64,000 nucleotides of DNA from an uncultured Gammaproteobacteria bacterium (GCA_964576435.1 CAZNUP010000002.1:42112-106111), one strand, 5' to 3'. Positions 37,665-64,000 are shown, counted from the stretch's first letter. The notes: a model not told the origin generated them from the letters alone. Program-made: numbers and translations.

Positions 37665-37671
37665 GTTTTTG

Positions 37672-37864: not shown

Positions 37865-37868
37865 CTTA

Positions 37869-39600: not shown

Positions 39601-39603
39601 GGA

Positions 39604-47390: not shown

Positions 47391-47945
47391 TTAGTCAACC
47401 AGAGGGTCCATAGCAACTACATACCAAGCAATTCCGTCCCACATTTCTAGAGATTGGATTTCTGTATTAAAGCCAAGGGTGCCGACTTCTGGTTTTTTAG
47501 GTCTACCGTTTGTGTTCCAGGTGGCAATTCTTGGAAGACCAACCATCACTGACAATCCGCCACCAATTTCAATGTAGGTTGAGGAGTTTTTGGAAAGTTC
47601 TGGCTTGGCGTCGGGATTACTTGGCAGTCTGATATGACCTCCAAGAACAGTGCCTGATCCATCGTTTGCAAATGTTGCACCCAAAACACCCACACCAGTT
47701 GCTTGTTGGATGTCAGTTTCTGTAACTCCAACTCTTTTAAAGGAATCAGCACCATGAGCCGCAAGGGTTAGTTTAAATTTATTACTGCTTGTCCCATGAA
47801 TTAGGAGATTATTTGACCAAGTTCTGGCGTCAGTGCCATGGAAGATGATTGCCGACTTTGATTTAAAAGTGTCTGTCGCATGAAGAACGCCAGTGTCTCT
47901 GGATTTTATTGCGTCAGCGGTGTGAGTAATTAGAATGTTATCCAT
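47391..47945 (-). CDS. Hypothetical protein (184 aa) with N-terminal HxTD repeats and a C-terminal domain shared with the serine-rich repeat protein
   Basis: Repeats ITHTADA / VLHATDT / IFHGTDA / LIHGTSS / AAHGADS lie about 13 aa apart. The C-terminus RIATWNTNGRPKKPEVGTLGFNTEIQSLEMWDGIAWY aligns with [37 protein letters not shown] of the next gene. Confidence 0.55.
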   Translation of the reverse strand: MDNILITHTADAIKSRDTGVLHATDTFKSKSAIIFHGTDARTWSNNLLIHGTSSNKFKLTLAAHGADSFKRVGVTETDIQQATGVGVLGATFANDGSGTVLGGHIRLPSNPDAKPELSKNSSTYIEIGGGLSVMVGLPRIATWNTNGRPKKPEVGTLGFNTEIQSLEMWDGIAWYVVAMDPLVD

Positions 47946-47946
47946 A

Positions 47947-50900
47947 TTAATTTGAATTAGGATTTAAATTCATACGTAAAGTGTACCAGGATTGTCCACC
48001 CCAGAGTTCTAGATTTCCTGTATCTGTATTTAGACCTAGTGTTCCTGATTTTGGTTTCATTGGCCTCGTTGATGTTGTCCAGGTGGCCATTTTGGTTAGG
48101 CCAAGTAGGCCGGAACCTCTTGGGGTAACTTTACCCAGCATTGATGGTTGATACTTTGGAGCAGTTGGCCTATTAACCAACAGTTCTAACTCAGCTGGCG
48201 TTAAATTACCACCCCTTAAGAATGCATCAGTTGTGTTGGAGATTGTATATGAGGGGATTGACGATTCACTGGGACTGGCACTGCCAGTTGGGGAGAAGCT
48301 TAGTGAAATACTAATCGATTGGCTTATTGAACCTGTTGGACTTGCTGAAGCAGATTCAGATGATGATGGAGATGGGGAGAAGCTACTTGATGGTGAAGTA
48401 GATGAAGACTCCGAGAGTGATGAACTTTCAGAAATAGATGTTGAGAGTGAAGCTGATGGTGAAAGACTGGCACTTGGTGAGACTGAAGCAGATGTGCTAC
48501 TTGACTCTGAACCTGATAAAGATTCTGATGCACTTTCTGAAAGTGAGGACGATGGACTTTGGCTAGCACTTTGTGACAAAGAAGAACTTTGTGAGAGTGA
48601 TGAACTTTCAGAAAGAGAAGCGGATGGAGAAAGTGACGCCGAGGTACTTCCTGACGTGGAGCTACTTATAGAAGCTGAGGTGCTTTGGGAAACAGAAGAA
48701 GATTGTGAAATTGATGAGGACTCCGATAAACTACTTGACTGTGAGAGTGAAGATGATTCTGACAAACTAGCTGAAGGTGACAAGCTTGCACTTGGTGAAG
48801 TTGATGCAGAAATACTTGGAGAAATTGAAGAACTTATTGAAGCGGATGTACTTTCTGAAACAGAACTACTTGGAGAAAGTGAACTTGACTGGGAAATAGA
48901 AGCTGATGGTGATTGACTTGCTGATGGTGACAATGAGGATGATTCCGACAAACTTGCTGATGGGGAAATCGAGGCTGACGGAGAAAGAGACGACGATGTA
49001 CTTCTACTAGTTGAGGAACTTGTTGATGCAGAAATACTAGACGAGGTTGACGTGGATGGAGAAACTGATTGTGATTCTGACAAACTACTAGATGGTGAGA
49101 GTGATGAACTTGGTGACAAAGATGCTGATGGAGAAATAGAAGCACTGGGTGAGATTGATGCTGATGGAGATGTGGAAGCTGAAACACTAGCACTAGTTGA
49201 AGCTGAAACTGATGCGGAAGTACTTGCTGATGTTGAGGAACTTGGTGATAGGGATGCCGAACTACTTGCTGAAGCAGATCTTGATGCAGAGGATGAACTA
49301 CTTGCTGAAATTGAAGATGACGGGGAAAGACTTGCGCTTGGTGATATAGAAGATGATGGAGAAAGAGACGCTGATGGTGAAAGGGATGCTGATGGAGAAG
49401 TTGATGATGATGGTGAAAGAGATCTGGAAGCACTGGAACTTGTTGAAGATGAAACTGAAGCAGAAGTGCTTGCTGAAGTTGATGAGCTTGGCGAAATTGA
49501 GGCAGAAGGAGAAGTGGATGATGAAGGAGATAGAGATGACGAAGGTGAAAGGCTTGCACTTGGAGAAAGTGATGCTGACGGAGAAGTAGATGCCGATGGT
49601 GATAGGGAGCGCGATGCACTAGCTGATGTTGAAGCACTTTGTGAAGCCGATGTGCTTGCTGAAGTGGAACTACTTGGTGATTGCGATGCGGATGGTGAGA
49701 GTGATGCAGATGGAGAAGTTGATGATGATGGGGAAAGTGACGCAGATGGTGAGATTGATGCGCTTGGTGATGTTGATGAGCTTGGACTTTGAGATGCAGA
49801 CGCACTGGCACTAGTTGAGGCAGAGGTTGACGCTGAACTACTTGCTGAAACAGACGAACTTGGACTTTGAGAAGCAGATGGAGAAATGGATGATGAGGGT
49901 GAAACACTGGCGCTTGGTGAAAGCGATGCTGATGGTGAAACAGATGCCGATGGTGAGAGAGAGGAAGAAGCACTTGCGCTTGTTGAAGCTGAAACGGAGG
50001 CTGACGAACTTGCTGACACGGATGAACTTGGTGAGACTGAAGCTGACGGAGAAACAGATGATGAAGGTGATAATGACGAACTAGGTGATTGTGATGCTGA
50101 TGGGGAAAGGGATGCACTTGGTGACTGTGAGGCAGAAGGGGAAACTGATGCAGAGCTACTTGCTGATGTTGAAGATGAAACAGATGCAGAACTACTTGCG
50201 GAGGTTGATGATGAGGGTGAAATCGATGCCGATGGGGATAAACTAGAGCTTGGTGAAGTACTAGATGATGGACTTAATGAAGCTGATGGTGAAACTGACG
50301 CTGACGGGGAGACTGAGGCTGATGGTGAAAGAGAACTTGATGCACTAGCTGATGTCGACGCACTTGTTGATGCAGAACTACTGGCAGAAACGGAGGAACT
50401 TGGTGACTGAGAAGAAGAAGGTGAGACTGAAGCAGACGGAGATGTTGATGATGATGGGGAAAGTGATGCAGATGGTGAGATTGATGCACTTGGTGAAATT
50501 GAAGATGATGGCGAAAGGGAACTAGATGTACTGGCACTAGTTGAGGCAGAGGTTGACGCTGAACTACTTGCTGAAACAGACGAACTTGGACTTTGAGAAG
50601 CAGATGGAGAGGTGGAAGAACTTGGCGATGTTGAGGAGGATGGAGATAAACTTGCTGAAGGTGAAAGCGAAGCACTAGGAGAAGTGGATGCAGATGGTGA
50701 CAAAGATGATGATGCACTAGCTGATGTTGAAGCACTTACTGAAGCAGATGTACTTGCTGAAATAGAACTTGAGGGACTTAAACTTGCGGATGGTGAGACA
50801 CTCGAGCTTGGTGATAAAGATGCACTTGGTGACAAACTTGCTGATGGGGAGACACTTGAACTTGGAGATTGTGATGCTGATGCACTGGCACTAGTTGAAG

Positions 50901-51936
50901 CTGAAACTGAAGCTGAACTACTTGCTGAAACAGATGAACTTGGGCTTTGAGAAGCAGATGGGGAGATTGAAGCGGAAGGTGATGTTGAAGCAGATGGAGA
51001 AAGTGATGATGACGGTGACAAACTTGCAGATGGTGAAACAGAAGCTGAAGGTGAGAGTGAACTTGATGCACTGGCTGACATTGAGCTACTAGCTGATGCT
51101 GATGAACTTGCTGATGTTGAAGATGATGGACTTATACTCGCCGATGGTGATGTTGAAGCAGATGGAGAAAGACTTGATGATGGAGAAAGTGAAGCGGAAG
51201 GAGAAAGTGATGCGGAAGCTGATGCAGAAACTGATGATGATGCGGAAGCTGAACTACTTGCGGAGCTTGATGAACTTGGTGACTGCGATGCTGATGGAGA
51301 AGTAGATGACGAAGGTGAAGTTGACGCTGATGGTGAAAGACTGGAACTTGGTGATAACGATGCTGACGGTGAGACTGATGCTGATGGCGAAAGAGAACTT
51401 GATGCACTGGCACTAGTTGAAGCTGACACTGATGCGGAAGTACTTGCTGAAGTTGAAGATGAAGGGCTAGTACTTGCACTTGGTGAAAGACTGGAACTTG
51501 GCGATAGTGATGCTGAGGGTGATATTGATGCGCTTTGAGAAATAGAAGCGGATGGACTTTGAGAGGCTGACACACTTGAGGAAGTTGAAGCACTTACTGA
51601 AGCTGAGGCGCTTTGTGAGGCAGAGGCACTTGGAGAAAGTGATGCTGATGGACTAAGGGAAGCTGAAGTTGAAGCACTTGTTGATGCGGAGGTACTAGAA
51701 CTTGGACTTTGCGAGGCAGAGGTACTTGCTGATGTAGATGCTGATGCTGATTCTGATGGACTTAAGCTGGCACTGCTTGCTGAATAGACAGGATATGGTT
51801 GTCCTGGATAAGGTTGACCAAAATCTGTCGTACCAATACCAGAACCTCCTTGAGGAGATTGTTGTGGTGGGGTAGCATTTGGGTCGTCGTTACCTTGAGC
51901 GGGATATGGGTTACCAAAATAGTTAGAACCGAACAT
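47947..51936 (-). CDS. Serine-rich repeat protein (1329 aa), mucin/SRRP-like, with no signal peptide
   Basis: About 1,100 aa of SAS(T/V/L)S(A/P)S repeats (S[PATLVQ]S[AS]...). The N-terminus is [15 protein letters not shown]... with no hydrophobic segment. The unique C-terminal ~130 aa share a domain with the 47391-47945 protein. Confidence 0.7.
48120..51780 (-). repeat. Degenerate short-period coding repeat (6-12 nt periodicity) encoding the Ser-rich tract
   Basis: This low-complexity DNA produces spurious long ORFs in all other frames (D/E/G-rich on the plus strand, H/Q/L-rich on the minus strand). Confidence 0.8.
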
Positions 51937-52012
51937 AGGATTGAATTCCTTTTAAAAGGCATTGTATTGCCCATCAAATATTGTGCATCTTAAGAGGTGA
52001 AGTTACAAGAAG

Positions 52013-52570
52013 TTATTTTTTAATTAAGACTACTTGAATGTCCATTACAACATTTGTGTAATGCCTGAGTGCAAAGGCTTTGGCTTCTTCACTTCTCATT
52101 GCCCAATCTGGGGTGAAATCATATCCAAAAGAAAAATCAAAATCGCAATGTATTGGATAATGATCTAATTTGTTTTGTACTCTCCAATCTTTGTTGTAAT
52201 AGAGGAACGTGGCTTCGGAAATTACTCTTGTATGTGTGGGATCTTGCCAGGCGCGGACTGAGTTGTAATAGGGTGCACGAATTAAGGCTTTTGCCCCTGG
52301 CTTCATGATTCTATAAAGTTCCTCCATAAACTTTATGATGTCTTTTGTGTGCTCAATATAGTGACTGGAAAAAATTTCATCAACGCTATTGTCTGGAATT
52401 GGCCAGGGAAATTTCTCAAGGTCATAAACCATGTCAACTCCGTCTGACTTAGCAATATCGATGCCAAAGAAACCTGGGGCCTTGTTTTGCCCACAGCCAA
52501 TATCAAGCTTAAATGGTGAGGGAAAATTTAACGGGCTTTCTTTCTTTTTTGTTTTTATGTTTTTGGACAT
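52013..52570 (-). CDS. Class I SAM-dependent methyltransferase
   Basis: Motif I LDIGCGQNKAPG and motif II VDEIFSSHYIEH fit the Methyltransf_11/23-type fold. Confidence 0.65.
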   Translation of the reverse strand: MSKNIKTKKKESPLNFPSPFKLDIGCGQNKAPGFFGIDIAKSDGVDMVYDLEKFPWPIPDNSVDEIFSSHYIEHTKDIIKFMEELYRIMKPGAKALIRAPYYNSVRAWQDPTHTRVISEATFLYYNKDWRVQNKLDHYPIHCDFDFSFGYDFTPDWAMRSEEAKAFALRHYTNVVMDIQVVLIKK

Positions 52571-52582
52571 ATGCGAATTATA

Positions 52583-53299
52583 TTACCAGACTAAATCGTT
52601 TACTAGATCGTAGTTGCCAGCTTTAATTCTTGTATCGCAAGCAACTTTGTATCCAAGTTTTTGAATATTCTCGAAGAAAAAAAGATCAAGCATGTCATCT
52701 GGATTTTTGCCAGGGTGCCTTAAAAAAGGAGTTCTAAACCATGGTCTTGGAACTCTGGGGTCTCTGAAGATGTCCAATTTGAAAAGAGTGTAAGAGGTAG
52801 TTAAACCCAAGCATGGTTGGATGCCGTCAACAACAGAGGAAACGGTTTGAAATGATAAGGGAAAAGAATTTGGATGGCCAAAAATTTGTGGTTTACCTTC
52901 CTCTCCTTTTGACCAAATTAAACCGCCAACAACATCGTATTTGCCAATTGATTCAAAAAGACGAGGTAAGCCGTCCAAAGGTGGAAGGATGGTTTCTTCC
53001 AAAGTTAAAATATATTTAAAAGTACTAAGTCCGGGATTTGTTAGAATTTGTTCGATTGCAGCATTATAGGCAAAGTTTTTTTCAAGATTCATCATCATTA
53101 GGCGCATGAATTTTTGATTCATTTGGCTAATTTGATAGAGCCATCTTTCGGCAACTTTTGCGTGAATCGCTCCTGAGTTTGGGATGATGCAAATTGTTCC
53201 TAAGTCTTTATAGCTTTGGGAAGTATAAAGTCTATTTATAGAGGAATTTAAATCACTATTGTGTTTGCCTTGAAAATCGGGATAAGTCAGATCTACCAT
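52583..53299 (-). CDS. Putative GT-A-like glycosyltransferase (paralogue of the next gene)
   Basis: TICIIPNSG near the N-terminus; conserved DIFRDPRVPRPWF and KVACDTRIK..YD shared with the 53293 gene. Confidence 0.35.
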   Translation of the reverse strand: MVDLTYPDFQGKHNSDLNSSINRLYTSQSYKDLGTICIIPNSGAIHAKVAERWLYQISQMNQKFMRLMMMNLEKNFAYNAAIEQILTNPGLSTFKYILTLEETILPPLDGLPRLFESIGKYDVVGGLIWSKGEEGKPQIFGHPNSFPLSFQTVSSVVDGIQPCLGLTTSYTLFKLDIFRDPRVPRPWFRTPFLRHPGKNPDDMLDLFFFENIQKLGYKVACDTRIKAGNYDLVNDLVW

Positions 53300-54015
53300 A
53301 CAATGTCGTTTTCCGCATCATAGTGGCCGACTTTTATCCTTGTGTCACAAGCCACTTTATAATTAAGTTTTTTGATGTTTTCATAAAAATAGAGGTCTTG
53401 GCTATAGCCTCTAATGCCAACGTTTGGAGCAAATTCCTGGAGTGTTTTAAACCATGGTCTTGGAACTCTGGGGTCTCTGAAGATATCTTTTTTGAAAAGA
53501 TTGAATCCCATTCCTAGTCCATTGCATTCTTGAATGGTTTCCGGAATTGGAACTTGGGGAACAAAATTAATTTCCTCTCTTTTATGGTCGCCATAAATCA
53601 TTGGTTGGCCGGCGTCGCCTTTTGTCCAATATAGACCTCCCACAACATCAAATTTTTCCATACCTTCATAGAGCTTTAAGAGTCCGTCGGGAGGAGGCAT
53701 ATTGTCTTCTTCTAAAGTGAGGATATATTTCCAGGAACGAAGGATAGGATTTTCTAAAATTTGAGTGATTGCTTGAGTGTAGGCGGCGCCAACTTCCATG
53801 CCGATAACAAACATACGCATAAATTTTTGATTCATTGGCACCATTAAACCCCACCAGCTTTGCAAAACTTTGGCTGAAATCATGCCTCTCGTTGGGATAA
53901 TGCAGATGGTTGACAGATCTCTATAAAATTCATTGGTTGATAGTTTTTCAGATAAATCAACTGAAATTTGCGCAGGAGGGTCAAAATGGTCAATCACAAT
54001 TTGTGGTTTCGTCAT
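53293..54015 (-). CDS. Putative GT-A-like glycosyltransferase (paralogue of the previous gene)
   Basis: TICIIPTRG, ILTLEEDN (a DxD-like motif), DIFRDPRVPRPWF; overlaps its neighbour by 7 nt. Confidence 0.35.
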   Translation of the reverse strand: MTKPQIVIDHFDPPAQISVDLSEKLSTNEFYRDLSTICIIPTRGMISAKVLQSWWGLMVPMNQKFMRMFVIGMEVGAAYTQAITQILENPILRSWKYILTLEEDNMPPPDGLLKLYEGMEKFDVVGGLYWTKGDAGQPMIYGDHKREEINFVPQVPIPETIQECNGLGMGFNLFKKDIFRDPRVPRPWFKTLQEFAPNVGIRGYSQDLYFYENIKKLNYKVACDTRIKVGHYDAENDIVW

Positions 54016-54028
54016 AGCAGCGAGTTTA

Positions 54029-55171
54029 TCATGTGGAAACGAAAGTTACCGCTGGTAAAATGGTCGCTGTTGAGCCAGCACCACCTGTTGTTCCTAGTTC
54101 GCTTATGGTAATTGCAGTTGGAATGGCGGTTCCACCAAAACCTGCTCTTCCTGTGTTTGTTAGAAAGCCAACAATGTTTCTGCCCCACCAATTTGTGAAG
54201 GCAGAGTTGCTGGCACTCCAAGCCGTGGAGGCAACACCAATCGGCATCAACGAACCAGAGACCATATTTACCGGATTAATGGGTTGACCAATTATGCCTG
54301 CATTACTTAGGCCAAAGGTTGACCTGGTGTCGCCATTGCTTCTTAATTGCAGTAAGCCAATCCAATAAACACCACCTGTCAAGCTCGTCATATCGGCACC
54401 AAATTGTAAGCCAATAATTCTTGTTCCAGAGATGAATGATGACATAAGTCCTGTTGTTGTTAAGCCTGTGCTGCCATTAGTATTGAATGGTCCATACCCG
54501 TAGCCACTGGTCATGGTTGTCGTTGGAAAATTCCAAGTTACTGAGCGGCTATTTAAAGTTTGAGAAATGCCAAAAGAGTTACTGGTTATTAAACTTAGTG
54601 AGTTGTCATTTCTACTATAGAGTCCAAAATAGGAAAAGTGAGTGTGGCTAGCTGCTCCAATGGCGCTGGTTGCAAGGGACAATGAATTGCCAATTAGAAT
54701 TTGATTAAAGTTAAGGTTCGGGGGAATTGTTACTGGGAAAACAAAAAGCGAATTAGTTCCCGTGACTGAGGTGTAATTTGCAGCAATTGTTTGTAATCCA
54801 GTTTGGCCAGCTCCGGCAATGTGGACTGGAGCCCAGTAGGTGAGAGGGGCACTGGCATCGGTCATGGTTTTTTCGGTGATGGTGGCAGCGATTTGAAAGC
54901 CAACTTGAAAAGATTGGGAAGAAGAGCTTTCTTGGGTTCTTAAAATTGTAAAAGTGTCGACATCAATGTCTGTCACCCGGATAATTTCAGCATTGGTGGA
55001 AATTGGTTGGGTTCCCGATGGCCAGACAGTGGCATTAAAAGGAGGTGGGGGAAATTTTAATCCATCTCCAGCTTGCACTGTTAAAGTTGTTCCTGTCCCA
55101 GGATTTGTTGTGTCACCCTGGTTGGTTCCCCGAATTGTTGAATAGGCAAAGTTTCTATGTGCGTCAGCCAT
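54029..55171 (-). CDS. Tandem-paralogue hypothetical protein 3 of 3 (380 aa); candidate structural/glycan-acceptor protein
   Basis: Shares N-terminal ...FPPPPFNATVWPSGTQPISTNAEIIRVTD...DTFTILRTQE, a mid-region ...GYGYGPFNT... and C-terminal ATILPAVTFVST with the two upstream genes. It has no signal peptide or TM and is S/T/N/G-rich. Confidence 0.55.
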   Translation of the reverse strand: MADAHRNFAYSTIRGTNQGDTTNPGTGTTLTVQAGDGLKFPPPPFNATVWPSGTQPISTNAEIIRVTDIDVDTFTILRTQESSSSQSFQVGFQIAATITEKTMTDASAPLTYWAPVHIAGAGQTGLQTIAANYTSVTGTNSLFVFPVTIPPNLNFNQILIGNSLSLATSAIGAASHTHFSYFGLYSRNDNSLSLITSNSFGISQTLNSRSVTWNFPTTTMTSGYGYGPFNTNGSTGLTTTGLMSSFISGTRIIGLQFGADMTSLTGGVYWIGLLQLRSNGDTRSTFGLSNAGIIGQPINPVNMVSGSLMPIGVASTAWSASNSAFTNWWGRNIVGFLTNTGRAGFGGTAIPTAITISELGTTGGAGSTATILPAVTFVST

Positions 55172-55172
55172 C

Positions 55173-56291
55173 TTAAGTAGACATTACATTAGAATAAAAG
55201 GTAACAGTTGGCAAAATTGTGGCTGTTGAGTTGGCAGCTGAAGCACCAAGAGCTGATAAGTTAATGCTGTCTGGAACTGTGGTGCCACCAAAATTTCCAA
55301 GAGAAGTGGCAGTGACAAAAGCAACCATGTGTCGACCCCACCACTGGGTGCTGTTGCCAACATTTGTTCCGCCCCAAAGCGAAGCCACTGAACCTATGGG
55401 CAAAACACCGCTGACGCTGCCCGCAAGATGGGGAGGGTCAATTATTTGACCAATGACACCAGAGATAATTACTCCTGCTCCACTATTATTTGCTGTGCTT
55501 CTAAGTGACATGAGGCCAAGATAGTATATGCCGTTTGTTAGATGCATTTCACTGCCAAATTGCATCCCCACAGCTCTCGTTCCTGAGATGTAGTTAACAA
55601 TTTGAGCGGTGTTGCTCATTGCTAAAGTGTCATAACCATAACCGCTGGTGTTGGTTGTTGTTGGGAAACTCCAAGTTCGTGAGAGGCCGTTCATGCTTTC
55701 AGCGATTGAAAAAGACCCTGTGGCCATTAAAGACAATGCAGTGCTTGCGTTCATAGTATAGAGGCCAAAATAAGAATAGTATGAATTGCTGCCTTGGGCG
55801 TTACTTGTTGTATATGACATTGAGACTGGAAGAATGGCTTGGTTAAAATAGATATTGTTGTTGACAGTTACTGGAAAAACAAAAAGTGAGCCAGATGATG
55901 ATTGTCCTGAAGCAGAAGCTAAGGTTTGAAGTGAGGTAGCTGCAGCTGAAGAGTAAATAAATGGGGACCAAGTGGCAAATGAATTTTCAGCTTCGACTAA
56001 GGTTTGTGCTGTAATTGCTGCAGAAATTTGGTCACCAACAATAATGTTTTTGGCGTTAGTGTCCTCTTGCGCTCTTTCTACAGTAAATGTGTCAGTAGAT
56101 TTGGATACAACGAGCACTATTTCTGCATTTTCTGATGTGGGTTGTTCGCCTGTGGGCCAAATGGTAGCGTAAAAAGGAGTGTCTGGGAAAAGACTGCCAG
56201 TCCCTGCTGAAACTACTAATGAAGTGCCAGTATTGTTGGGTGTTGGGGCGGTGTCAATTGCTGATATGGCAAAATTATTGAAATTACTCAT
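55173..56291 (-). CDS. Tandem-paralogue hypothetical protein 2 of 3 (372 aa)
   Basis: ...SLFPDTPFYATIWPTGEQPTSENAEIVLVV...TFTVERAQE...; C-terminal TILPTVTFYSNVMST. Confidence 0.55.
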   Translation of the reverse strand: MSNFNNFAISAIDTAPTPNNTGTSLVVSAGTGSLFPDTPFYATIWPTGEQPTSENAEIVLVVSKSTDTFTVERAQEDTNAKNIIVGDQISAAITAQTLVEAENSFATWSPFIYSSAAATSLQTLASASGQSSSGSLFVFPVTVNNNIYFNQAILPVSMSYTTSNAQGSNSYYSYFGLYTMNASTALSLMATGSFSIAESMNGLSRTWSFPTTTNTSGYGYDTLAMSNTAQIVNYISGTRAVGMQFGSEMHLTNGIYYLGLMSLRSTANNSGAGVIISGVIGQIIDPPHLAGSVSGVLPIGSVASLWGGTNVGNSTQWWGRHMVAFVTATSLGNFGGTTVPDSINLSALGASAANSTATILPTVTFYSNVMST

Positions 56292-56295
56292 AATT

Positions 56296-57411
56296 TCATG
56301 TAGAAACCAAGCTTACTATTGGTAGGACCGTAGCAATAGTGTTTGCAGTTTGTAAGTTAGCAAGTTCGATTACGTTTGGTAACCTGGTGCCGCCAAATCC
56401 TTGCTGAGCGGTATTGGTGGCAAAGCCCATTATAAACCGACCATTCCAACCTGAGATTCGATTGTTGCTTTGAGCAAATTCTGCGGCTGCTTGACCTATT
56501 GGGTTCATGCCGCTAACTGAACCGGCCATGTTAATGGGATTTATTACTTGGCCGATAATTCCAGCATGGGAAAAACCTAGTGAAGAAACACTTCCGGCAG
56601 TACTTCTGTAGGTGAGAATTGCAAGCCAATAAATACCGCCTGTAATAGATAACTCAGTGTTAAATTGTAATTGCACTTTTCGGGCTCCTGATATAAGTGA
56701 AACCATTTGAGCTGTTGTGGAAATGTTACCAACTCCGGGAAAAGAAGTGCCATAAGCGTAGCCTGTTGTGGCGGTGCTTGTTGGATAGCTCCATGTTAGG
56801 CTGACACTGTTTAGAGTTTCAAGAATACTAAACGAATTAGAAGTGATGAGTTCCATAGTATTTGATGACATTGAATAGAGTCCAAAATTGGAAAAATAGG
56901 TGTTACTGACTCCGGCACTATTGGTGGTCATATACGACTGTGATTGGGCTATAACTATCTGATTAAAGCGCATGGGGAAGGGGAGAGTCATCGGGAAAAT
57001 AAAAATGGAACCGGTTCCTGTTGTAGAGGAATTTGCGGCAAGAGTCTGAACTCCGGTGCCTGCAGAGGCAGCGATTGTTGGAGCCCAGCTATTTATGTAG
57101 TAGTTTTCTAAATCAGTAAAGGTTTTGGCTGTTAAAGCGGCGGCAATTTGGTAACCTGATTGAAGGTTGATGCTTGCAGAGCCTTCCTGCTGACGGGTTA
57201 TTGTAAAGTTGTCTGATGCAATTCCTGTGACTCTAACTATTTCGGCATTAGTGCTAGTTGGTTGTGTGCCGCTTGGCCAAACAGTGGCATTGAAAGGCGG
57301 GGTTGGGAAAAGTGATCCCTGGCCAGTTTGAACATCTAAAGAAGTGCCACCAGTTCCTGGGGAATTGGCAAGAGTGGAATATGCGAAATTTGCGAATTGA
57401 TCGATTGCCAT
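56296..57411 (-). CDS. Tandem-paralogue hypothetical protein 1 of 3 (371 aa)
   Basis: ...SLFPTPPFNATVWPSGTQPTSTNAEIVRVTG...NFTITRQQE...; C-terminal TVLPIVSLVST. Confidence 0.55.
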   Translation of the reverse strand: MAIDQFANFAYSTLANSPGTGGTSLDVQTGQGSLFPTPPFNATVWPSGTQPTSTNAEIVRVTGIASDNFTITRQQEGSASINLQSGYQIAAALTAKTFTDLENYYINSWAPTIAASAGTGVQTLAANSSTTGTGSIFIFPMTLPFPMRFNQIVIAQSQSYMTTNSAGVSNTYFSNFGLYSMSSNTMELITSNSFSILETLNSVSLTWSYPTSTATTGYAYGTSFPGVGNISTTAQMVSLISGARKVQLQFNTELSITGGIYWLAILTYRSTAGSVSSLGFSHAGIIGQVINPINMAGSVSGMNPIGQAAAEFAQSNNRISGWNGRFIMGFATNTAQQGFGGTRLPNVIELANLQTANTIATVLPIVSLVST

Positions 57412-57421
57412 ATTTTAGAGA

Positions 57422-59167
57422 TTATTTTAGCATTTTTAAACGTCTTTGAGGTCTTGGAATTTCTAGTAATTCTCTTAAATTTTGCCAACCTTCTAGTGAA
57501 TCTATGTTTCCTTCTTGCCAGTTTATGAGGAGTTGTTGGTTTCTAAATTCTTCTTTTTGCCATCTGGCTTTGGTAGCATTTTCCCCGTGTTTGACGTCTA
57601 TATTTGGAAACTCTGATTTCCAGGTTTTTAAAGTGTAGATCGTTTGCCATTTAATTCTTTGGTGGGTCATAGGTTCAAAACCCATGTCAGCCGAGTAGCC
57701 TTGGCTTTTAATAAATGCTACGCGTTCTCTAAAATGAGTAATTAGTTCCTCCCGAAATCCACAAAGGCCCGATAATTGGTTTACATCATAGTGAAGTGTG
57801 TGACCATCGGATTTTCTTAGGAACCAAACATTTTGGTTATAGTAGAAAGAGTTTCTATCGTCTGGCGTAAAGTCAAAGTGGCTGGGATGGTAAAACACAT
57901 CATGTTCGCAAAAGAAAATGATGTCTGACTTGCTATTTTCTAACGCCCCAAGAATTTGAGTAAACATGGCTAAGGGACTTTTCTTAAGAGAGGGGAAACG
58001 AATGTTTTTAACTCCGAAATCCAGTTTTTTGAGAGTTGCGGAAACAATGGGGATGTTTTTTTCTGAACTAATTTTTTGCAATTGATCGCGAACGGGTTTG
58101 GCAATTTTTTCGTCTAGCTCGCTATCTGAATAGTAGATTATGCCTTTGGTTTTAGGGCTAGACATTGGTGATTCCTCAGTTGGTTCAATTTCAGCTGGTT
58201 TTGATTGATCGTTTGAATTCGAAAAGGTAAAAGTGTTGTTTTTTAGTTTTTCTAGATCCTCATTAGTCCAACCTTTAACTGGCCAAAACTTTTCAACAAG
58301 CCATGACAGGGGTTTTTTTTGGAGAGGCCATTTGTTATTAAAGAAAAGGTCTCTGGCATATTTTTTGGCGTATTCTTGATCTTTGCCTGAGATTGGATAG
58401 GGGAAACCAAAGTCACCACCTTGAGTTCTAAACATATGTGCATACCAAGTTTTTTTATTACAAAGAACACGACCACCTGAAAGCCAAGTTTTAACTGCAA
58501 CTTCAATTCCTTGTGAGCCCCAGCTACCAAAAGCTTCATCACAAATACCAAGTTCCCAATATTTTTCTCTAGTTAGCATCCAACAAGACCCTTGGAGAGA
58601 CATGGTTTCTGTTATTTCTCCTTGGCCTTCGGGACGTTTGCTGTAATCGCCGAAATATTGGAAGTGGGGTGTTGAGTCAAAACAATAGGAAATACTTTTT
58701 GGACTTTCTTTTGCTATCCAAACAACATCTCTTGTGGTTGGCTTTCCGCATTCCGTACAAGGACCTGATTTTCCTTGATATCTTCTATGGCCATTTTCGC
58801 AAATCCAATCAAAAGCGTGGAGATTTTTCATTAATGGAACCATAGTCCAATCAGATTGCATCTCACTAGTCATCTTTATATCAAACCCTTTGTCAAACGA
58901 ACAATGTGCATCACATTTCATTAAATATTTAGCTCGAGACAATTGAGCGGCTTCATTGGTTGCGGCTCTTTGACCAATGCTTTCATTGTGGTAAATAAGT
59001 GTCACTCGGTCGTCATCTTGGACCGGGGGATTGGCCCAAATACCATCTAAAACGGCGATTATTTCTGTGTTGCCTTCAATTTTTTCGAGAATATCCTGAA
59101 TTGTCCTTGCCAGGAACATTTCATTTCGGGCAGGGATGAGAATGGAAAGATCTGGGGTATTGGTCAT
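57422..59167 (-). CDS. Two-domain glycosyltransferase; the N-terminal GT-A domain has a D-x-H motif and a WGxxxxE...HMFR motif (GT27 polypeptide-GalNAc-transferase-like / GT2-like)
   Basis: LSILIPARNE, then YLMKCDAHCSFDKGFD (DxH), then WGSQGIEVAVKTWLSGGRVLCNKKTWYAHMFR (compare the ppGalNAc-T motif WGGENLEISFRIWQCGG...HVFR). It has no TM, so it is cytoplasmic. Confidence 0.55.
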   Translation of the reverse strand: MTNTPDLSILIPARNEMFLARTIQDILEKIEGNTEIIAVLDGIWANPPVQDDDRVTLIYHNESIGQRAATNEAAQLSRAKYLMKCDAHCSFDKGFDIKMTSEMQSDWTMVPLMKNLHAFDWICENGHRRYQGKSGPCTECGKPTTRDVVWIAKESPKSISYCFDSTPHFQYFGDYSKRPEGQGEITETMSLQGSCWMLTREKYWELGICDEAFGSWGSQGIEVAVKTWLSGGRVLCNKKTWYAHMFRTQGGDFGFPYPISGKDQEYAKKYARDLFFNNKWPLQKKPLSWLVEKFWPVKGWTNEDLEKLKNNTFTFSNSNDQSKPAEIEPTEESPMSSPKTKGIIYYSDSELDEKIAKPVRDQLQKISSEKNIPIVSATLKKLDFGVKNIRFPSLKKSPLAMFTQILGALENSKSDIIFFCEHDVFYHPSHFDFTPDDRNSFYYNQNVWFLRKSDGHTLHYDVNQLSGLCGFREELITHFRERVAFIKSQGYSADMGFEPMTHQRIKWQTIYTLKTWKSEFPNIDVKHGENATKARWQKEEFRNQQLLINWQEGNIDSLEGWQNLRELLEIPRPQRRLKMLK

Positions 59168-59173
59168 AGAGCT

Positions 59174-60088
59174 TTACCAAAGGAATGTCTTTTCAATTCC
59201 TTGATCTAGGGAAAGAGTTTTTCTCCCAGTTGCTTGGCGAAATTTTTGTGAATCTAGGACAGAATTTTTGAGCCTTAGATTGGATTCAATTGGGCCAAAA
59301 AACTGCTTTAGTGTTACAGGATTTACTTTGTTGGTTGGCACGTTTAGTTTTTTACAAACTTTTTGTGCTAGTTCGTAGGGACTTGCGATTTGACTTCCGG
59401 CAATATGATAAATTCCTTTTGCGCCGACATCCAAAAGTGCAATGGTTCCTTCTGTTAGATCATCAATATGGGTGAAAGCTATTTTTTGATCGGTGACAGC
59501 GTTTGTTTTTCCTTTATAGATAAGGTTGTTAACTATACCTTGAACCATGTTGCTGCCTAAACCTCCTTGGCCATAAGCAACAACGCCTCTAACTATTAGA
59601 AACCTCTTTAATCCTGAGTTTAAAACTAGGTCTTCAGCAATACTTTTTGTCTGGCCATACCAGTTTTTTGGTTCTTTGGTATCAGTTTCTTTGTAGCTAT
59701 CTTTTTCTCCTGAAAAAACGCATTCCGTTGAAAGTAGAACAAGTGTTTTACTATTTTCTTTGCAGTAGTTAATTATATTTTGGGTCCCTACAACATTTAC
59801 TTGCCAAGCCAGACTATCTTGACCTAAATTTTTTTCTAGTTCACATCTATCTATATGAGCATAGGCTGCAGCGTGAATTACTATGTTGGCGTCACTTTTA
59901 AGAGTCATAGGCTTAGTCAGGTCGCGCCTTACATATGTTGTTAATTTGGAAGAGTTTTTGGGTGGGGGAGTTTGGTGGTAAACGCCAAGGACTTTATTCT
60001 TGTCAAGATTATCTAAAAATCTTCTTCCTATAAAACCGGCAACGCCGGTTATTATGTAGCTATCTGATTTTTTGGTCTTTTTCTTCAT
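59174..60088 (-). CDS. NAD-dependent sugar epimerase/dehydratase (SDR family)
   Basis: Rossmann motif TGVAGFIG near the N-terminus; about 300 aa; it sits within the GT/MT cluster. Confidence 0.65.
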   Translation of the reverse strand: MKKKTKKSDSYIITGVAGFIGRRFLDNLDKNKVLGVYHQTPPPKNSSKLTTYVRRDLTKPMTLKSDANIVIHAAAYAHIDRCELEKNLGQDSLAWQVNVVGTQNIINYCKENSKTLVLLSTECVFSGEKDSYKETDTKEPKNWYGQTKSIAEDLVLNSGLKRFLIVRGVVAYGQGGLGSNMVQGIVNNLIYKGKTNAVTDQKIAFTHIDDLTEGTIALLDVGAKGIYHIAGSQIASPYELAQKVCKKLNVPTNKVNPVTLKQFFGPIESNLRLKNSVLDSQKFRQATGRKTLSLDQGIEKTFLW

Positions 60089-60930
60089 AGTGTTTCTTTA
60101 GGTAGGGGAGAGAATTTTTCTACTAACCAAGAAAAGTCGTGAACTCGTTCTTTCCATTTGTTATTTAGCCAGTAGTCAGCAGCAAACTCTCTGCCCTGTT
60201 TAATTCCCTCATTATATGCTCTTTGTTCCTGGTGGGTGAAGCCATAGCCTCTACTATCTCTATGCCAGTGGGCATACCAAGTTTTTTTGTTTACAACGAC
60301 CCTTCCTCCTGAAAGCCAAGCTTTATTGCCAATTTCTTGGGCCTCATTGGCAAAACTTCCGTAAGCTTGGTCATCCATGGGGCCAATTACATCCCAGAAG
60401 AAGTCTTTTTTTAAAAACCAACAGGAACCTTGAAAGGTCATGGTGTCATCGATTAGTATGTCTTTTCTTTCTTCTGCACGTTGTTTCCATTCGTTACCAT
60501 GAAGATAGCCGTCTTTGTTTTCTAGATACATGTAATCAATTGGTGGGCGTCCGTCTTTAATTATTTGCCAATTGTCGGCATCAAGCCTGTATCTTCTTGG
60601 AATTACAACCCAATTATCTGAAGAGTCGGCGATGAGTTTTTGGTCAAACCCTTCATCAAACATGCAATGTTCGTCTGTTTTCATTAGATAGGTTCCTTTA
60701 GCAATTGCCATGCCGGCATTTATGCCAGCGCGCATGCCTTTTCCCATCCCAGGTTTTCCTTGATGAATGACTTTTATTCTTGAATCCGTCCAGTTATATT
60801 CTTTGGGCCAATAGCCATCGAGGACGACAACCACTTCAACATTTCCTTTTGCTTTAGAAAGGATGTCGTCTATGGTTTTTTGCAAATAATCCTCAGTCCG
60901 ACTGGGGATAATAACAGAGAGATCTATCAT
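60085..60930 (-). CDS. GT-A glycosyltransferase with D-x-H and WGxxxxE motifs (GT27-like / GT2-like), paralogue of 57422 and 63293
   Basis: LSVIIPSRTE, YLMKTDEHCMFDEGFD, FANEAQEIGNKAWLSGGRVVVNKKTWYAHWHR. Confidence 0.55.
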   Translation of the reverse strand: MIDLSVIIPSRTEDYLQKTIDDILSKAKGNVEVVVVLDGYWPKEYNWTDSRIKVIHQGKPGMGKGMRAGINAGMAIAKGTYLMKTDEHCMFDEGFDQKLIADSSDNWVVIPRRYRLDADNWQIIKDGRPPIDYMYLENKDGYLHGNEWKQRAEERKDILIDDTMTFQGSCWFLKKDFFWDVIGPMDDQAYGSFANEAQEIGNKAWLSGGRVVVNKKTWYAHWHRDSRGYGFTHQEQRAYNEGIKQGREFAADYWLNNKWKERVHDFSWLVEKFSPLPKETL

Positions 60931-60956
60931 GTGGGTAAGTTTTTAGGGCAGAAGAA

Positions 60957-61481
60957 TTACGTGTTCCATTTTTTGACGAACCACCAGGTGACGTCTTCTT
61001 TTGGATGTGAGGTAACATTTAAACTTAGTGAATGGGATTTGACATAACCATCAACAGCTAAGATTACACTCGAATTATTAGCGGCATTATAGTTATTTCC
61101 AGCAATTATGCCACCCTTTTTTACTTTTTTTGACCAGGCTAGAAGATCTGTTATCACATAATCAAATTTTGGATTAGCATCAATATAGACGAAATCTAGT
61201 GCACCATCTGGAAAACTTCTTAGAGCGTCCATACTGGTTTTTCTGACAAGAGTCGCGTTATATGGGCGAAGTCTTTTTTTGGCAAAATCATATTTTCCAT
61301 ACATGACATGATTTTTTACATTGCCGTTTACCCAAGGATCAATGCCGTAGTATTTTAAACCAGGAATAGCTTTGCAAAGTGTTTCAGCAAAATCTCCTGC
61401 GTAGACACCAATTTCAGCACCAATTTTGAAGCCAAGTTTGTTGAAGTATTTAGCTAGATCGCCTCTGGATTTAACTTCCAT
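60957..61481 (-). CDS. Class I SAM-dependent O-methyltransferase (Methyltransf_24 / TylF-like)
   Basis: EIGVYAGDFAETL (motif I) and LDFVYIDANPKFDYVITDL...GGIIAGNNY. Confidence 0.55.
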   Translation of the reverse strand: MEVKSRGDLAKYFNKLGFKIGAEIGVYAGDFAETLCKAIPGLKYYGIDPWVNGNVKNHVMYGKYDFAKKRLRPYNATLVRKTSMDALRSFPDGALDFVYIDANPKFDYVITDLLAWSKKVKKGGIIAGNNYNAANNSSVILAVDGYVKSHSLSLNVTSHPKEDVTWWFVKKWNT

Positions 61482-61517
61482 ATGTTTCTTACATTTTATG
61501 TTATCACATTTATTTTT

Positions 61518-62165
61518 TTACGTGTTAACAAAAAACCAGGATCTAAATCTATCACGAAGCATTCCAGGTTTTATTTCTTTAGTGCCAACTATGAAGTAGG
61601 GGGTTATTCCATAAGCTCTTACATAAGCATCAAGAGCCCACCTAACATGATTTCTTTTCTTTTGTGGAAAAAAACAATAGTCGTGGCCTGCTACAATGCC
61701 ACCTGCTTTTACCTTTTTCTTCCAGGCGTGGATATCATCAGTTACATTTGGGAACTCGTGATTGCCGTCAATGTAGACAAAATCTAGTGATCCATCTTCA
61801 AAGTCTTTAACTGCTTCAAGAGATTGTTTTCTGATGATTTTAGAATTGTAGTTTGCTAGTCTTTTTGTTGCCTCGTCATAGATATCATCAAATTTTTTTT
61901 GCTCGGTATCGACTCCTGAAATTCCGGGTTCATAGGCAGAAGCTAGCCAAGGATCAATGGAGTAGAGGAGAAGACTCGGATTTTCTTTTAGAAGAACTTC
62001 CGAATAGATACCTCTTTCAACTCCAATTTCAGCACCGTTTGTAAATCCTAGTTCGGCAAAAAGTTTAGCTAAACTGTTTCTATCGATGTTTTCGATTTCA
62101 ATTGGTTGAGCGGATTTTAAATTCAGCTTGTATTTCTTGGAGATGAAATCCAATGTATTAGTCAT
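61518..62165 (-). CDS. Class I SAM-dependent O-methyltransferase (Methyltransf_24 / TylF-like), paralogue
   Basis: EIGVERGIYSEVL and LDFVYIDGNHEFPNVTDDIHAW...GGIVAGHDY. Confidence 0.55.
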   Translation of the reverse strand: MTNTLDFISKKYKLNLKSAQPIEIENIDRNSLAKLFAELGFTNGAEIGVERGIYSEVLLKENPSLLLYSIDPWLASAYEPGISGVDTEQKKFDDIYDEATKRLANYNSKIIRKQSLEAVKDFEDGSLDFVYIDGNHEFPNVTDDIHAWKKKVKAGGIVAGHDYCFFPQKKRNHVRWALDAYVRAYGITPYFIVGTKEIKPGMLRDRFRSWFFVNT

Positions 62166-62166
62166 T

Positions 62167-62808
62167 TTAAACCCAATCTTCTTTAGTTCTTATAAACATC
62201 CAGCCTGGATTATCTGGGCCAAAGGTGGGGTCTTTTATATCATTTGTTAGGACAAAAAGAGGTCTAACATTGTGGGCATAAACATATGCTTGAACGACGT
62301 CTTTTACATTGACAATATATTTTGTGTGGCTTCTTTTGTAGTCATGACCAAAGACAATTCCACCAGGACGGACTTTCTTGGCCCAATCGCAGATGTCGAT
62401 TGCGACGTTTTTAAAGTCATGAGCGGCATCAATGTAGACAAAATCTAGTGAGCCATCTTTGAAATCTTTAGCAGCGTCGCTGCTAAATTTCTTTACAATT
62501 TCGACGTTATAGGGAGCTAGTCGTTCTTTTGCCTGGTTAAAATAGTTGTTAATTCTATCTGTGTATTCGTTGTAGCCTTGATATGGTTCCCAAATATCGA
62601 CTGCAAATAATTTAACACCGGGGTTTTCTTTACAAATGGTTTCCGCGTGCCAACCTTGGGCGACACCGACTTCGGCACCTGTTTTGAATCCGAGTTCGCC
62701 AAGAGTTTTTGCCATTATGGTCCTATTTATTCCATGGATTTCTACTGGATTTTTAGGGTGAATCTCGAGATTAAATTTTTTAACTATGAAATCAAGTGTG
62801 TCTACCAT
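62167..62808 (-). CDS. Class I SAM-dependent O-methyltransferase (Methyltransf_24 / TylF-like), paralogue
   Basis: EVGVAQGWHAETI and LDFVYIDAAHDFKNVAIDICDW...GGIVFGHDY. Confidence 0.55.
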   Translation of the reverse strand: MVDTLDFIVKKFNLEIHPKNPVEIHGINRTIMAKTLGELGFKTGAEVGVAQGWHAETICKENPGVKLFAVDIWEPYQGYNEYTDRINNYFNQAKERLAPYNVEIVKKFSSDAAKDFKDGSLDFVYIDAAHDFKNVAIDICDWAKKVRPGGIVFGHDYKRSHTKYIVNVKDVVQAYVYAHNVRPLFVLTNDIKDPTFGPDNPGWMFIRTKEDWV

Positions 62809-63290
62809 AGATTTTCTAGATCAACTAAATTACTTAATACATCAGTTCTTCTGTTATCTTCTTTCCAAATTTTCCGGTATTTAAAGAGGGGATAGATCTC
62901 GTGGTAGCTATAAGTATGATAATAGGTTTTATTAGTGTCGTGAATCACAATATACTTTGCATAATTTGCTAAGCGTTTGATGTCGACTTTTCTTCTGAAA
63001 TCAGGGGAATGGTCAACAAGAACAACATCCCAGGGCCGTTCAATGTCCGCTTTATCCCAGTCATCAACATAATTTATTTCGTGATAGGGCCCTTTGTAAT
63101 AGTCAACCCAACCATTCCATTCAGCACTGTTGTCATAGGAAACTAATTTTCTTTTATTTAAGAGGCACCAATAGTGGAGGAAGGGAGTACTAAAAACTCC
63201 AGTGCCAAGTTCCAAAACGTCACCATTAGTTAGCGAAAGAGTTCTTATTAGGGCTGGCAGGTGGGTGCCATAATTAACGGAGACTCTCAT
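62802..63290 (-). CDS. Putative SAM-dependent methyltransferase-like protein
   Basis: VLELGTGVFSTPFL (a GxGxG-like motif I) and an acidic VVLVDHSPDF motif; the call is weak. Confidence 0.35.
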   Translation of the reverse strand: MRVSVNYGTHLPALIRTLSLTNGDVLELGTGVFSTPFLHYWCLLNKRKLVSYDNSAEWNGWVDYYKGPYHEINYVDDWDKADIERPWDVVLVDHSPDFRRKVDIKRLANYAKYIVIHDTNKTYYHTYSYHEIYPLFKYRKIWKEDNRRTDVLSNLVDLENLW

Positions 63291-63292
63291 GG

Positions 63293-64000
63293 TTATTTTT
63301 TGTAGCGGCCGTTATCAATTAGCCACTGTTTATAGATTTTTTTCCAATTATCTGGCCAAGTGGGCATGGGCATAAATCTGTCAATTAACCACGATAAGTC
63401 GTTTGACCTATCCTCCCAATGGTTGCCCATCCAAAATCTGGCACACCAGTTGTAGGACTTTTTAATTCGTTCATCGGTTAGTGGCCAACCTCTTGGTCTT
63501 TGACCGCCTTTATGCATGTGGGCATACCAAGTTTTTTTGTTGACCATAACTTTCCCTTTCCATGGGCCGAGCCAGGTTTTTAAACATAACTCGGGAGGTT
63601 CCATGGCATAATTGTCATAGCCTTCAGAACTCATGCCTTTTAGTGAATTCCAGAAATAGTCTTTTGTTACAAACCAACCGGAGCCGTGCATTTGAATGGT
63701 TTCATCAATTAAAAATTCTGGTTTCCCTTCCCTTTCTGCAGTTCGTTCTGGCCAATGGCCTCCTGCTTTAAAACGAAATCCGTGGCGATCTGTAAAGGGG
63801 CAAGAAAGATAGAAATAATCGTAGTGCCTCTCATCTTGCCATTTCCAATTTTCGGCATCTAAAACATAAAATCTTGGGGTGACTAACCAATTGTCTTCCA
63901 TATCTGCTTGAAGTATTTCATCAAAGCCTTCACCAAACATACAATGAGAGTCTGATTTGTAGAGGTATTTTCCGGTGGCCATTCCGGAAAGAAGATTGAC
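63293..64000 (-). CDS. GT-A glycosyltransferase with D-x-H motif (GT27-like / GT2-like), 5'-truncated by the window edge
   Basis: The frame stays open to nt 64000 (...VNLLSGMATGKYLYKSDSHCMFGEGFD). It has WLGPWKGKVMVNKKTWYAHMHK and is a paralogue of 57422 and 60085. Confidence 0.5.
   Translation of the reverse strand, partial: VNLLSGMATGKYLYKSDSHCMFGEGFDEILQADMEDNWLVTPRFYVLDAENWKWQDERHYDYFYLSCPFTDRHGFRFKAGGHWPERTAEREGKPEFLIDETIQMHGSGWFVTKDYFWNSLKGMSSEGYDNYAMEPPELCLKTWLGPWKGKVMVNKKTWYAHMHKGGQRPRGWPLTDERIKKSYNWCARFWMGNHWEDRSNDLSWLIDRFMPMPTWPDNWKKIYKQWLIDNGRYKK

Follow-up and report, generated by a model that had tools for sequence, protein, structure and literature searches.

GT27-like glycosyltransferases in a candidate protein O-glycosylation island of CPR bacteria and phages

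What is glycosylated by a dense chromosomal island that encodes glycosyltransferases (GTs) and methyltransferases next to a serine-rich protein and three paralogous fibre-like proteins? The island occupies the end of a 64,000-nucleotide (nt) stretch of an uncultured bacterium (CAZNUP010000002.1:42112-106111; below, the window). The window is a stretch of a chromosome of the Candidate Phyla Radiation (CPR, or Patescibacteria), a group of ultra-small episymbionts, on a contig with a recorded length of 318,946 bp; its housekeeping genes encode an ATP-synthase subunit, LeuRS, ComEA/ComEC, ArgRS, NDK, sortase, MreB, WecG/TagA, and TatC. A first reading, made from the sequence alone, had suggested a cytoplasmic system that builds a methylated glycan directly on Ser/Thr or Asn residues of the serine-rich protein, of the paralogues, or of both. 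The explanation that best fits the analysis described here, to which we assign a probability of roughly 0.55, is that the island is a soluble cytoplasmic protein O-glycosylation system employing methylated sugars, devoted to Ser-rich and fibre proteins and common to CPR bacteria and phages.

The island and its GT27-like glycosyltransferases

From position 47391 to 64000, the minus strand carries every open reading frame (ORF) of the window. The island is larger than the 12 kb assigned to it by the sequence-only reading: it consists of 21 co-directional genes over ∼18.9 kb, starting at 47391 and ending ∼2.3 kb past the window end. The operon-like packing, in contrast, was described correctly, with intergenic spacings within 52013-64000 of 12, -7, 13, 1, 4, 10, 6, -4, 26, 36, 1, -7, and 2 nt. 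In the order of transcription, the first half consists of the GT that is cut by the window end, a 162-amino-acid (aa) protein, three Methyltransf_24 proteins, a 281-aa GT, an RmlD-like short-chain dehydrogenase/reductase (SDR), and a 581-aa GT; the second half consists of three ∼370-aa paralogues, two ∼240-aa paralogues, a Methyltransf_11 protein, the 1329-aa Ser-rich protein, and a 184-aa protein. Past the window end, two short-read contigs of the same organism add one more GT of this family, the fourth, together with three small ORFs, followed farther out by an IS200-type transposase, a membrane protein, an SH3 protein, and the nusG-rplKAJL cluster. Thus, the island is flanked by nusG-rplKAJL on one side and by TatC, MreB, ArgRS, and others on the opposite side. 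No terminase, portal, capsid, or integrase gene was found in the island or its flanks, and together with the housekeeping flanks, this rules out an intact prophage in the window. Transmembrane (TM) segments and signal peptides are absent from all of the island proteins, and therefore the chemistry is cytoplasmic, as initially suggested.

The three GT-A enzymes on which the sequence-only reading was built are present with the motifs that it quoted, and the metal-binding D-x-H (D86 and H88 in the 281-aa enzyme) and the distal H221 are invariant in 35 homologues. Two of the window GTs score 54.7 and 44.3 bits against Glycos_transf_2 (PF00535), with a gathering cutoff of 23.3 bits; the cut third GT has no Pfam match, and its full-length form aligns with the GT family. 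A profile of this family aligns at positions 3 to 259, that is, over the whole catalytic domain, with the polypeptide N-acetylgalactosaminyltransferases (ppGalNAc-Ts) T1, T2, T4, T9, and T12 and with Toxoplasma GalNAc-T3, with E-values from 4e-10 to 3e-5. The alignment pairs D-x-H with the DAHC of the GalNAc-Ts and H221 with the His of GHVFR. The likeness to the Gal/GalNAc-T motif is thus partial: in addition to D-x-H and the distal His, the positions E199, K203, W205, G208, and G209 are conserved, whereas G(S/P)Fxx(E)xQE stands in place of WGGEN. Structures of bacterial GT2 enzymes (GalT1, SpsA, and chondroitin/heparosan synthases) match only the N-terminal nucleotide-binding half in the profile search. 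An AlphaFold model of the 281-aa GT (mean predicted local distance difference test [pLDDT] score, 93.8) retrieved only ppGalNAc-Ts among the first 50 matches of a Foldseek search of the PDB; the next-best folds were GlfT2, chondroitin polymerase, and SpsA. Judged by this model, GT27 surpasses GT2 and GT7 as the nearest overall fold by a clear margin. The enzymes are GT27-like as far as sequence and predicted fold tell, which stops short of membership in GT27.

The GT family is large, with 3,805 matches in a word-indexed search and 415 representatives at an E-value of ≤1e-30 in a library clustered at 50%, and it includes fusions of two or three copies of up to 1352 aa. The 581-aa GT of the window carries an additional C-terminal domain of ∼225 aa (IYYSD...FFCEHDVFYHPSHF) that belongs to a separate, unrelated family, found as a standalone protein in ∼91 cases and present in 113 of 157 loci; the profile search with it gave no PDB match. 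In most loci, such a "long GT" closes the module. A Cys/His-rich insertion (CENGHRRYQGKSGPCTECGKP) was observed at residues ∼120 to 150 of the GT domain of the 581-aa enzyme. It takes the CxxC...CxxC form in 20 of 87 long GTs compared with 4 of 218 short GTs, so that a Zn-ribbon-like insertion was rejected as a defining feature of the long form.

The module in phage genomes and CPR chromosomes

A degenerate-pattern scan identified 144 GT relatives in species-representative genomes, nearly all of them CPR metagenome-assembled genomes (MAGs), and 513 in IMG/VR viral contigs, many of which are 40 to 46 kb long. The link to phages is visible in metagenomic viral contigs only; tblastn of the 281-aa GT against GenBank phages returned just two N-terminal matches. 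For comparison, 2,809 ORFs from 156 loci (157 in some family counts) were clustered. The GT cluster is multi-copy and comprises 425 proteins under single linkage, which also draws in the ∼225-aa domain family. Methyltransf_24 proteins accompany the GTs in 121 of 157 loci, and the family of the 162-aa protein does so in 50; the companions that vary include RmlD-like proteins, UDP-sugar dehydrogenase, DegT aminotransferase, Methyltransf_11, and other small families.

In the viral loci, the gene order is terminase, a portal-sized protein, a scaffold-like protein, the major head protein, the GT module ending in a long GT of 520 to 600 aa, and then large proteins. In 30 viral loci, a major head protein was recognized, always upstream of the first GT and at a distance of 2 to 8 genes, and fibre-size proteins follow the module in related phage loci. 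The CPR chromosomal modules lack head genes; they lie beside TatC in 22 of 77 genome loci, across several CPR classes. One 44,615-bp contig was found twice, as L029 in a Paceibacterota MAG (GTDB genome set) and as L115 among the viral genomes of IMG/VR, and therefore some of the "genomic" loci are binned phage contigs. Clusters of major head proteins occur in three "genome" loci.

The three ∼370-aa proteins of the window, 44 to 52% identical to each other, combine an N-terminal domain of the virion-anchor type with a C-terminal β-sandwich. PHROG "tail fiber protein" families match their first ∼100 residues, and Ralstonia and Burkholderia phages, among others, have annotated tail fibres that align with residues 6 to 98 at up to 55% identity in tblastn searches; the N-terminal domain is homologous to the anchor domain of GP4-type tail fibres. 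The β-sandwich can be superposed on the tail spike of Bxb1 as well as on carbohydrate-binding modules. The family comprises 268 members, all of ∼370 aa and usually encoded three per contig. The order of long GT, three paralogues, ∼240-aa protein, and Methyltransf_11 recurs in unrelated contigs and is followed there by unrelated cellular genes. Synteny, which the sequence-only reading had left to be checked, is thus extensive: the paralogues come after the long GT in L078, L159, L160, and L161, with the same downstream genes except that the ∼240-aa proteins are a pair in L160 and L161 and a single copy, without Methyltransf_11, in L159, and the module itself occurs in many CPR lineages. Between L078 and L160, the three paralogues are 61 to 64% identical in corresponding positions and 45 to 53% identical otherwise. 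This positional orthology indicates that the triplication is old and has been maintained. Because the paralogues are tail-fibre-like and the module belongs to the standard content of the virion gene blocks of CPR phages, the purpose of the system reads differently than it does from the island alone. Within the paralogues, a loop, YPT(S/T)TAT(S/T)GYGYG (residues ∼209 to 221 of the protein encoded at 56296-57411, and equivalents), is near-invariant across 40 homologues in spite of a pLDDT of <50; it may serve for modification or for contact between subunits.

The 1329-aa Ser-rich protein has non-repetitive N- and C-terminal ends that enclose (S-x)n dipeptides of striking regularity: given Ser at position i, the probability of Ser at i+2 is 0.87. 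When Ser-rich proteins were defined as those with at least 30% Ser in a 100-aa window, 129 proteins of other loci showed the same architecture, with a median periodicity of 0.89. They are present in 62 of 79 viral loci, where they cluster immediately around the module, at position -1 in 17 loci, +1 in 21, and +2 in 21; they account for 21% of the downstream genes, 6% of the upstream genes, and essentially none within the module, and giant Ser-rich proteins of 800 to 1650 aa follow the long GT. The C-terminal ∼50-aa motif, ATWxTxxRPxKPxxGTLGxNTxxxxLExWxGxxWY, is shared with the 184-aa protein of the island, whose C-terminus is 49% identical to that of the 1329-aa protein and 42% identical to that of a 1312-aa Ser-rich protein in L056 (BLASTP); it recurs in Ser-rich proteins of other loci, one of them viral. 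The proposal that the Ser-rich protein is the acceptor therefore gains comparative support from this clustering and from the shared (S-x)n repeats, and the protein is best considered a candidate glycan acceptor. In contrast, nothing points to the Asn linkage that was initially considered along with Ser/Thr.

Several observations bear on the Ser-rich genes themselves. Tandem Repeats Finder detected only short arrays of 18 or 36 nt in the gene of the window, and therefore the repeat is degenerate at the DNA level. The gene region has a strong GC skew (0.40) and gives many long phantom ORFs when the other frames of either strand are read (e.g., 48834-50117, 427 aa), which are repeat artefacts and not genes. 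Another Ser-rich protein, of ∼290 aa (cluster c10), joins a globular N-terminal domain to an (S-x)n tail; it is encoded at L114:3305-4180 and in 22 related viral and genome loci, in phages directly after the major head gene and before the GT module, and qualifies as a candidate for a glycosylated head fibre or decoration protein.

Protein O-glycosylation and its alternatives

A scheme can be proposed in which the core of the system would be the multi-copy GT-A enzymes of ∼280 to 320 aa, with Mn2+ bound by D-x-H and the distal His. The RmlD-like reductase would finish a nucleoside diphosphate (NDP)-6-deoxyhexose donor, and one GT27-like paralogue would attach the initial sugar to hydroxyls of Ser/Thr. 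The 1329-aa protein offers candidate sites in its (S-x)n tract, and the tail-fibre-like paralogues do so in their S/T-rich loops, possibly including the near-invariant loop described above. Extension of the glycan might then fall to the remaining GT27-like paralogues, to the C-terminal domain of the 581-aa GT, and possibly to the pair of 238- and 240-aa proteins, and the sugars might be O-methylated by the three Methyltransf_24 proteins, the 162-aa protein, and Methyltransf_11. In phages, the products would be glycosylated head- or tail-associated fibres that are freed by lysis, and the chromosomal module would serve resident fibre-like proteins. The analysis itself shows the gene content, the homologies and fold, the synteny, the lack of membrane components, and the link with Ser-rich and fibre proteins; from these, we infer the protein acceptors, the identity of the sugar, the targets of methylation, and export.

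Known systems offer partial parallels. GT27 enzymes are regarded as eukaryotic. The eukaryotic GT27 enzymes (GalNAc-T1/T2 and Toxoplasma GalNAc-T3) share with the island GTs a GT-A domain over ∼250 residues, D-x-H, the distal His of HxFR, and the E/K/W/GG positions of the Gal/GalNAc-T motif, and the island GTs are encoded beside S/P-rich low-complexity proteins that resemble mucin domains. The island GTs differ in that they are soluble, bacterial or phage-encoded, multi-copy, often fused to other domains, and devoid of a lectin domain, a lumenal location, and a type II membrane anchor; they end after a helical extension with no hydrophobic segment. The serine-rich repeat protein (SRRP)/accessory Sec (aSec) systems of Gram-positive bacteria, such as those of Fap1 and GspB, use GtfA/GtfB plus accessory GTs. 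There, too, a very long (S-x)n protein is encoded beside soluble GTs that act in the cytoplasm, as proposed here. Unlike those systems, the window lacks a GtfA/GtfB GT-B pair, SecA2/SecY2/Asp, an N-terminal signal peptide, and an LPXTG anchor, and the island has a GT27-like GT-A enzyme as its would-be initiator, five methyltransferases, and a connection to phages.

Virus-encoded glycosylation provides a second group of parallels. Chlorovirus PBCV-1 (A064R) and mimivirus, in the glycosylation of its fibrils, rely on virus-encoded enzymes and methylated sugars; virus-encoded virion glycosylation resembles the island in using soluble machinery that is independent of membrane-linked pathways. In cluster O and F mycobacteriophages, an O-methyltransferase and GTs are encoded between the genes for portal and protease; cluster O phages carry O-methyltransferase and GT genes inside the virion block (PMC4351075). 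The cluster O genes are a functional precedent for the present module, which in the related phage loci likewise lies within the tailed-phage virion block. The mycobacteriophages differ in their GT family; here, there is also a chromosomal island without head genes, and Ser-rich repeat proteins flank the module. Orthology with the virion-modification genes gp35-38 of Corndog was rejected, as the best BLASTP E-values were 1.3 to 6. As to the fibre of Ralstonia phage GP4 (PDB 8jov), with its portal/adaptor-binding N-terminal domain, the paralogues differ in that the remainder is a short β-sandwich and not a long fibre, and in that their genes are chromosomal and form a conserved triplet with no other virion genes nearby.

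A number of points weigh against protein O-glycosylation. Identity of the GTs to GT27 is only 17 to 20%, the WGGEN signature is degenerate, and the ricin-type lectin domain of the ppGalNAc-Ts is missing (no Pfam match to Ricin_B); moreover, GT-A enzymes of similar fold use widely differing acceptors. Assigning GT activity to the 238/240-aa pair and to the C-terminal domain of the 581-aa protein is a guess from DxD-like motifs and a weak PHROG match. Surveys of CPR phages treat GT and rml genes as auxiliary genes for the host cell surface. A Ser-rich protein lies within the fetched flanks in only 19 of 77 genomic loci, and the adjacency in phages could merely reflect a shared structural block. 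Glycans on the island proteins are deduced here from the genes. What becomes of the chromosomal products is the weakest point: the fibre-like proteins lack a signal peptide, and virion genes on whose products they might dock are not found nearby.

Of the alternatives, the best supported, which we nevertheless consider unlikely, is that the module builds or remodels a non-protein glycan (a cell-wall or teichoic-like polymer, a soluble oligosaccharide, or a glycolipid), acting in phages as a "moron" that alters the host surface, with the fibre and Ser-rich genes as mere neighbours. The generic GT2 assignment by Pfam, the polysaccharide enzymes among the next-best folds, an RmlD-like gene of the kind typical of rhamnose-containing polysaccharide loci, the interpretation of CPR-phage GT and rml genes in the literature, and a WecG/TagA gene 5 kb from the island are all in its favour. 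The gene content of the module argues otherwise: every enzyme is soluble, and none of the 1,066 genes in the 156 modules encodes a protein with at least four TM segments, compared with 68 of 1,718 genes outside, so that no polyprenyl-phosphate GT, flippase, polymerase, or ABC exporter is in evidence. A capsule or O-antigen locus is thereby ruled out, the hallmarks of a teichoic-acid locus are likewise missing, and by the same count, the homologous islands do not sit in Wzx/Wzy loci. Furthermore, the phage module lies inside the virion structural block and not in a moron or lysogeny region, (S-x)n proteins tightly flank it, and the closest fold is that of a GT family with protein acceptors.

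Doubtful as well, and more far-reaching, is the proposal that CPR bacteria took over a phage glycosylation/fibre module, or phages a bacterial one, that the bacteria produce from it mucin-like (S-x)n fibres coated with methyl sugars, along with short fibre proteins, to attach to other cells, and that the GT family is a prokaryotic and viral sister of eukaryotic GT27 and acts as a Ser/Thr polypeptide glycosyltransferase. If so, mucin-type O-glycosylation would gain a bacterial or phage root.

That the island is a decaying late-gene remnant of a prophage, with no present function in the cell, appears improbable. Phage-type fibre domains, the same module as in phage genomes, and an IS200-type transposase at one edge speak for it, and the lack of integrase and head genes is what a remnant could be expected to show. 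Yet all 21 ORFs are intact and tightly packed, the gene order that includes the paralogues recurs in distant contigs at 45 to 65% identity, the three paralogues are positional orthologues in L078 and L160, and a similar chromosomal position by TatC is found in the 22 loci from several CPR classes; together, these features point to selection rather than decay. Finally, hypermodification of phage DNA through glycosylation and methylation of modified bases, as in T-even and other phages, followed by chromosomal capture would suit soluble enzymes, and phage-encoded sets of GTs and methyltransferases for this purpose are known (bioRxiv 10.1101/2023.12.21.572611), but it is highly improbable given that no thymidylate-synthase-like or TET/JBP-type base-hydroxymethylating enzyme is among the conserved neighbour families, that the module lies between head and fibre genes and not with replication genes, that large conserved chromosomal islands with fibre proteins would not be expected, and that the closest fold is GT27.

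Should the island indeed glycosylate proteins, many CPR phages may carry fibres that are glycosylated and decorated with methyl sugars, which departs from the interpretation of these genes as auxiliary genes for the host surface. The conserved chromosomal island may likewise underlie surface or fibre biology in organisms that are not yet culturable alone. Small, soluble GT27-like enzymes would also make the origin and the minimal requirements of mucin-type O-glycosylation experimentally approachable, because the bacterial and phage family that is closest to GT27, with its 415 representatives at 50% identity, is found beside mucin-like serine repeats. No description of a GT27-like/Ser-rich system in CPR bacteria or their phages was found in the literature.

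Accessory enzymes and neighbouring genes

Coordinates of the island genes in the window and the basis of their assignment (all positions counted from the first nucleotide of the window)
Feature	Position	Strand	Basis
184-aa protein	47391-47945	-	C-terminal ∼50 aa in common with the Ser-rich protein; PHROGs of unknown function
Ser-rich repeat protein (1329 aa)	47947-51936	-	51% Ser; (S-x)n dipeptides, x = A/P/S/L/T/V
Methyltransf_11 class I S-adenosylmethionine (SAM) methyltransferase	52013-52570	-	Pfam PF08241, 4e-9
238-aa paralogue, possibly GT-A-like	52583-53299	-	ILTLEE(D/T) motif; 49% identical to 53293-54015
240-aa paralogue, possibly GT-A-like	53293-54015	-	phrog_1574, 3e-9 (unknown function); phrog_12406 "glycosyltransferase," 0.0043
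Tail-fibre-like paralogue 3 (380 aa)	54029-55171	-	phrog_8469 "tail fiber protein," 2.7e-9, residues 27-108
Tail-fibre-like paralogue 2 (372 aa)	55173-56291	-	phrog_6427, 4e-11; phrog_8469, 3e-8
Tail-fibre-like paralogue 1 (371 aa)	56296-57411	-	∼105-aa N-terminal domain of virion-anchor type; C-terminal β-sandwich
GT27-like GT-A, two-domain (581 aa)	57422-59167	-	Pfam PF00535, 2.4e-11; KYLMKCDAHC...GFD...KKTWYAHMFR
RmlD-like SDR (NDP-4-keto-6-deoxyhexose reductase type)	59174-60088	-	PF04321, 3e-44; TIGR01214, 1.6e-43
GT27-like GT-A (281 aa)	60085-60930	-	D86-x-H88 and H221; TYLMKTDEHC...KKTWYAHWHR
Methyltransf_24 a (174 aa)	60957-61481	-	PF13578, 1.8e-13
Methyltransf_24 b (215 aa)	61518-62165	-	PF13578, 4.2e-15
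Methyltransf_24 c (213 aa)	62167-62808	-	PF13578, 4.5e-16
162-aa protein, probable class I SAM O-methyltransferase	62802-63290	-	Family profile vs PDB 3ntv, 8k1f, 3r3h
GT27-like GT-A, cut by window end (308 aa in full)	63293->64000	-	KYLYKSDSHC...KKTWYAHMHK

Pfam confirms the three tandem Methyltransf_24 paralogues. Their only PDB match, 6g7d (E = 6e-4 over 38 residues), is too weak for an assignment as sugar O-methyltransferases. The 162-aa protein has no Pfam match, and the matches of its family profile to PDB O-methyltransferases are weak (E-values of 6e-4 to 3e-3). With Methyltransf_11, which occupies the same place after the 240-aa pair in L160, L161, and L162, five methyltransferases are detectable in the window, fewer than the six or more counted earlier. 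The SDR gene, originally taken for an epimerase, matches the RmlD-type 4-ketoreductases best; TIGR01214 is its top match among SDR families, at 148.8 bits compared with an equivalog cutoff of 224 bits. Genes for the earlier Rml-type steps were not found in the island. The 238- and 240-aa proteins, described before as a second GT-like pair, are indeed paralogues, kept as a pair in L160 and L161 and as a single copy in L159, whereas their identity as GTs rests on motif resemblance and the weak PHROG match. The 238-aa protein has no PDB or Pfam match, and assignment of the pair and of the C-terminal domain of the 581-aa GT to a GT family was rejected, as neither PDB profiles nor hhalign against the GT27-like profile gave significant results. 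A scan for promoters and terminators found sites no more often than in shuffled sequence.

At the far edge of the island, the IS200-type (Y1) transposase is encoded at L164:6258-6884, ∼2.4 to 3.0 kb past the window end, on the opposite strand, where it separates the membrane protein from the first island gene. Fusions of Y1_Tnp and SH3 that form a related family occur at 18 other genome loci. The membrane protein (p261/c6; 261 aa, L164:5459-6244) has N-terminal TM helices, a small C-terminal domain, and an internal twin-arginine-like motif (DRRTFIKLVG...), and its family abuts the module in ∼27 genome loci. The TatC gene of the window (46248-46973) adjoins the island at the other edge; any functional tie of TatC or p261 to the module would be hypothetical. 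The WecG/TagA-family glycosyltransferase, of the cell-wall glycopolymer type (41939-42643, plus strand), is separated from the island by unrelated genes and is probably unrelated to it. Farther away, a divergent tRNA-Pro(CGG)/tRNA-Arg(CCT) pair (37671-37865) is followed at 37869-40806 by a sortase gene, an unannotated 364-aa ORF, and a PEGA-domain protein. Finally, a giant ORF of 6464 aa (2369-21763, plus strand), rich in G/S/T/N, contains a Peptidase_S74 domain, the intramolecular chaperone of endosialidases and tail fibres, ∼240 to 300 residues before its C-terminus, and represents a further module of the phage-fibre type, within an apparently cellular giant fibre protein.

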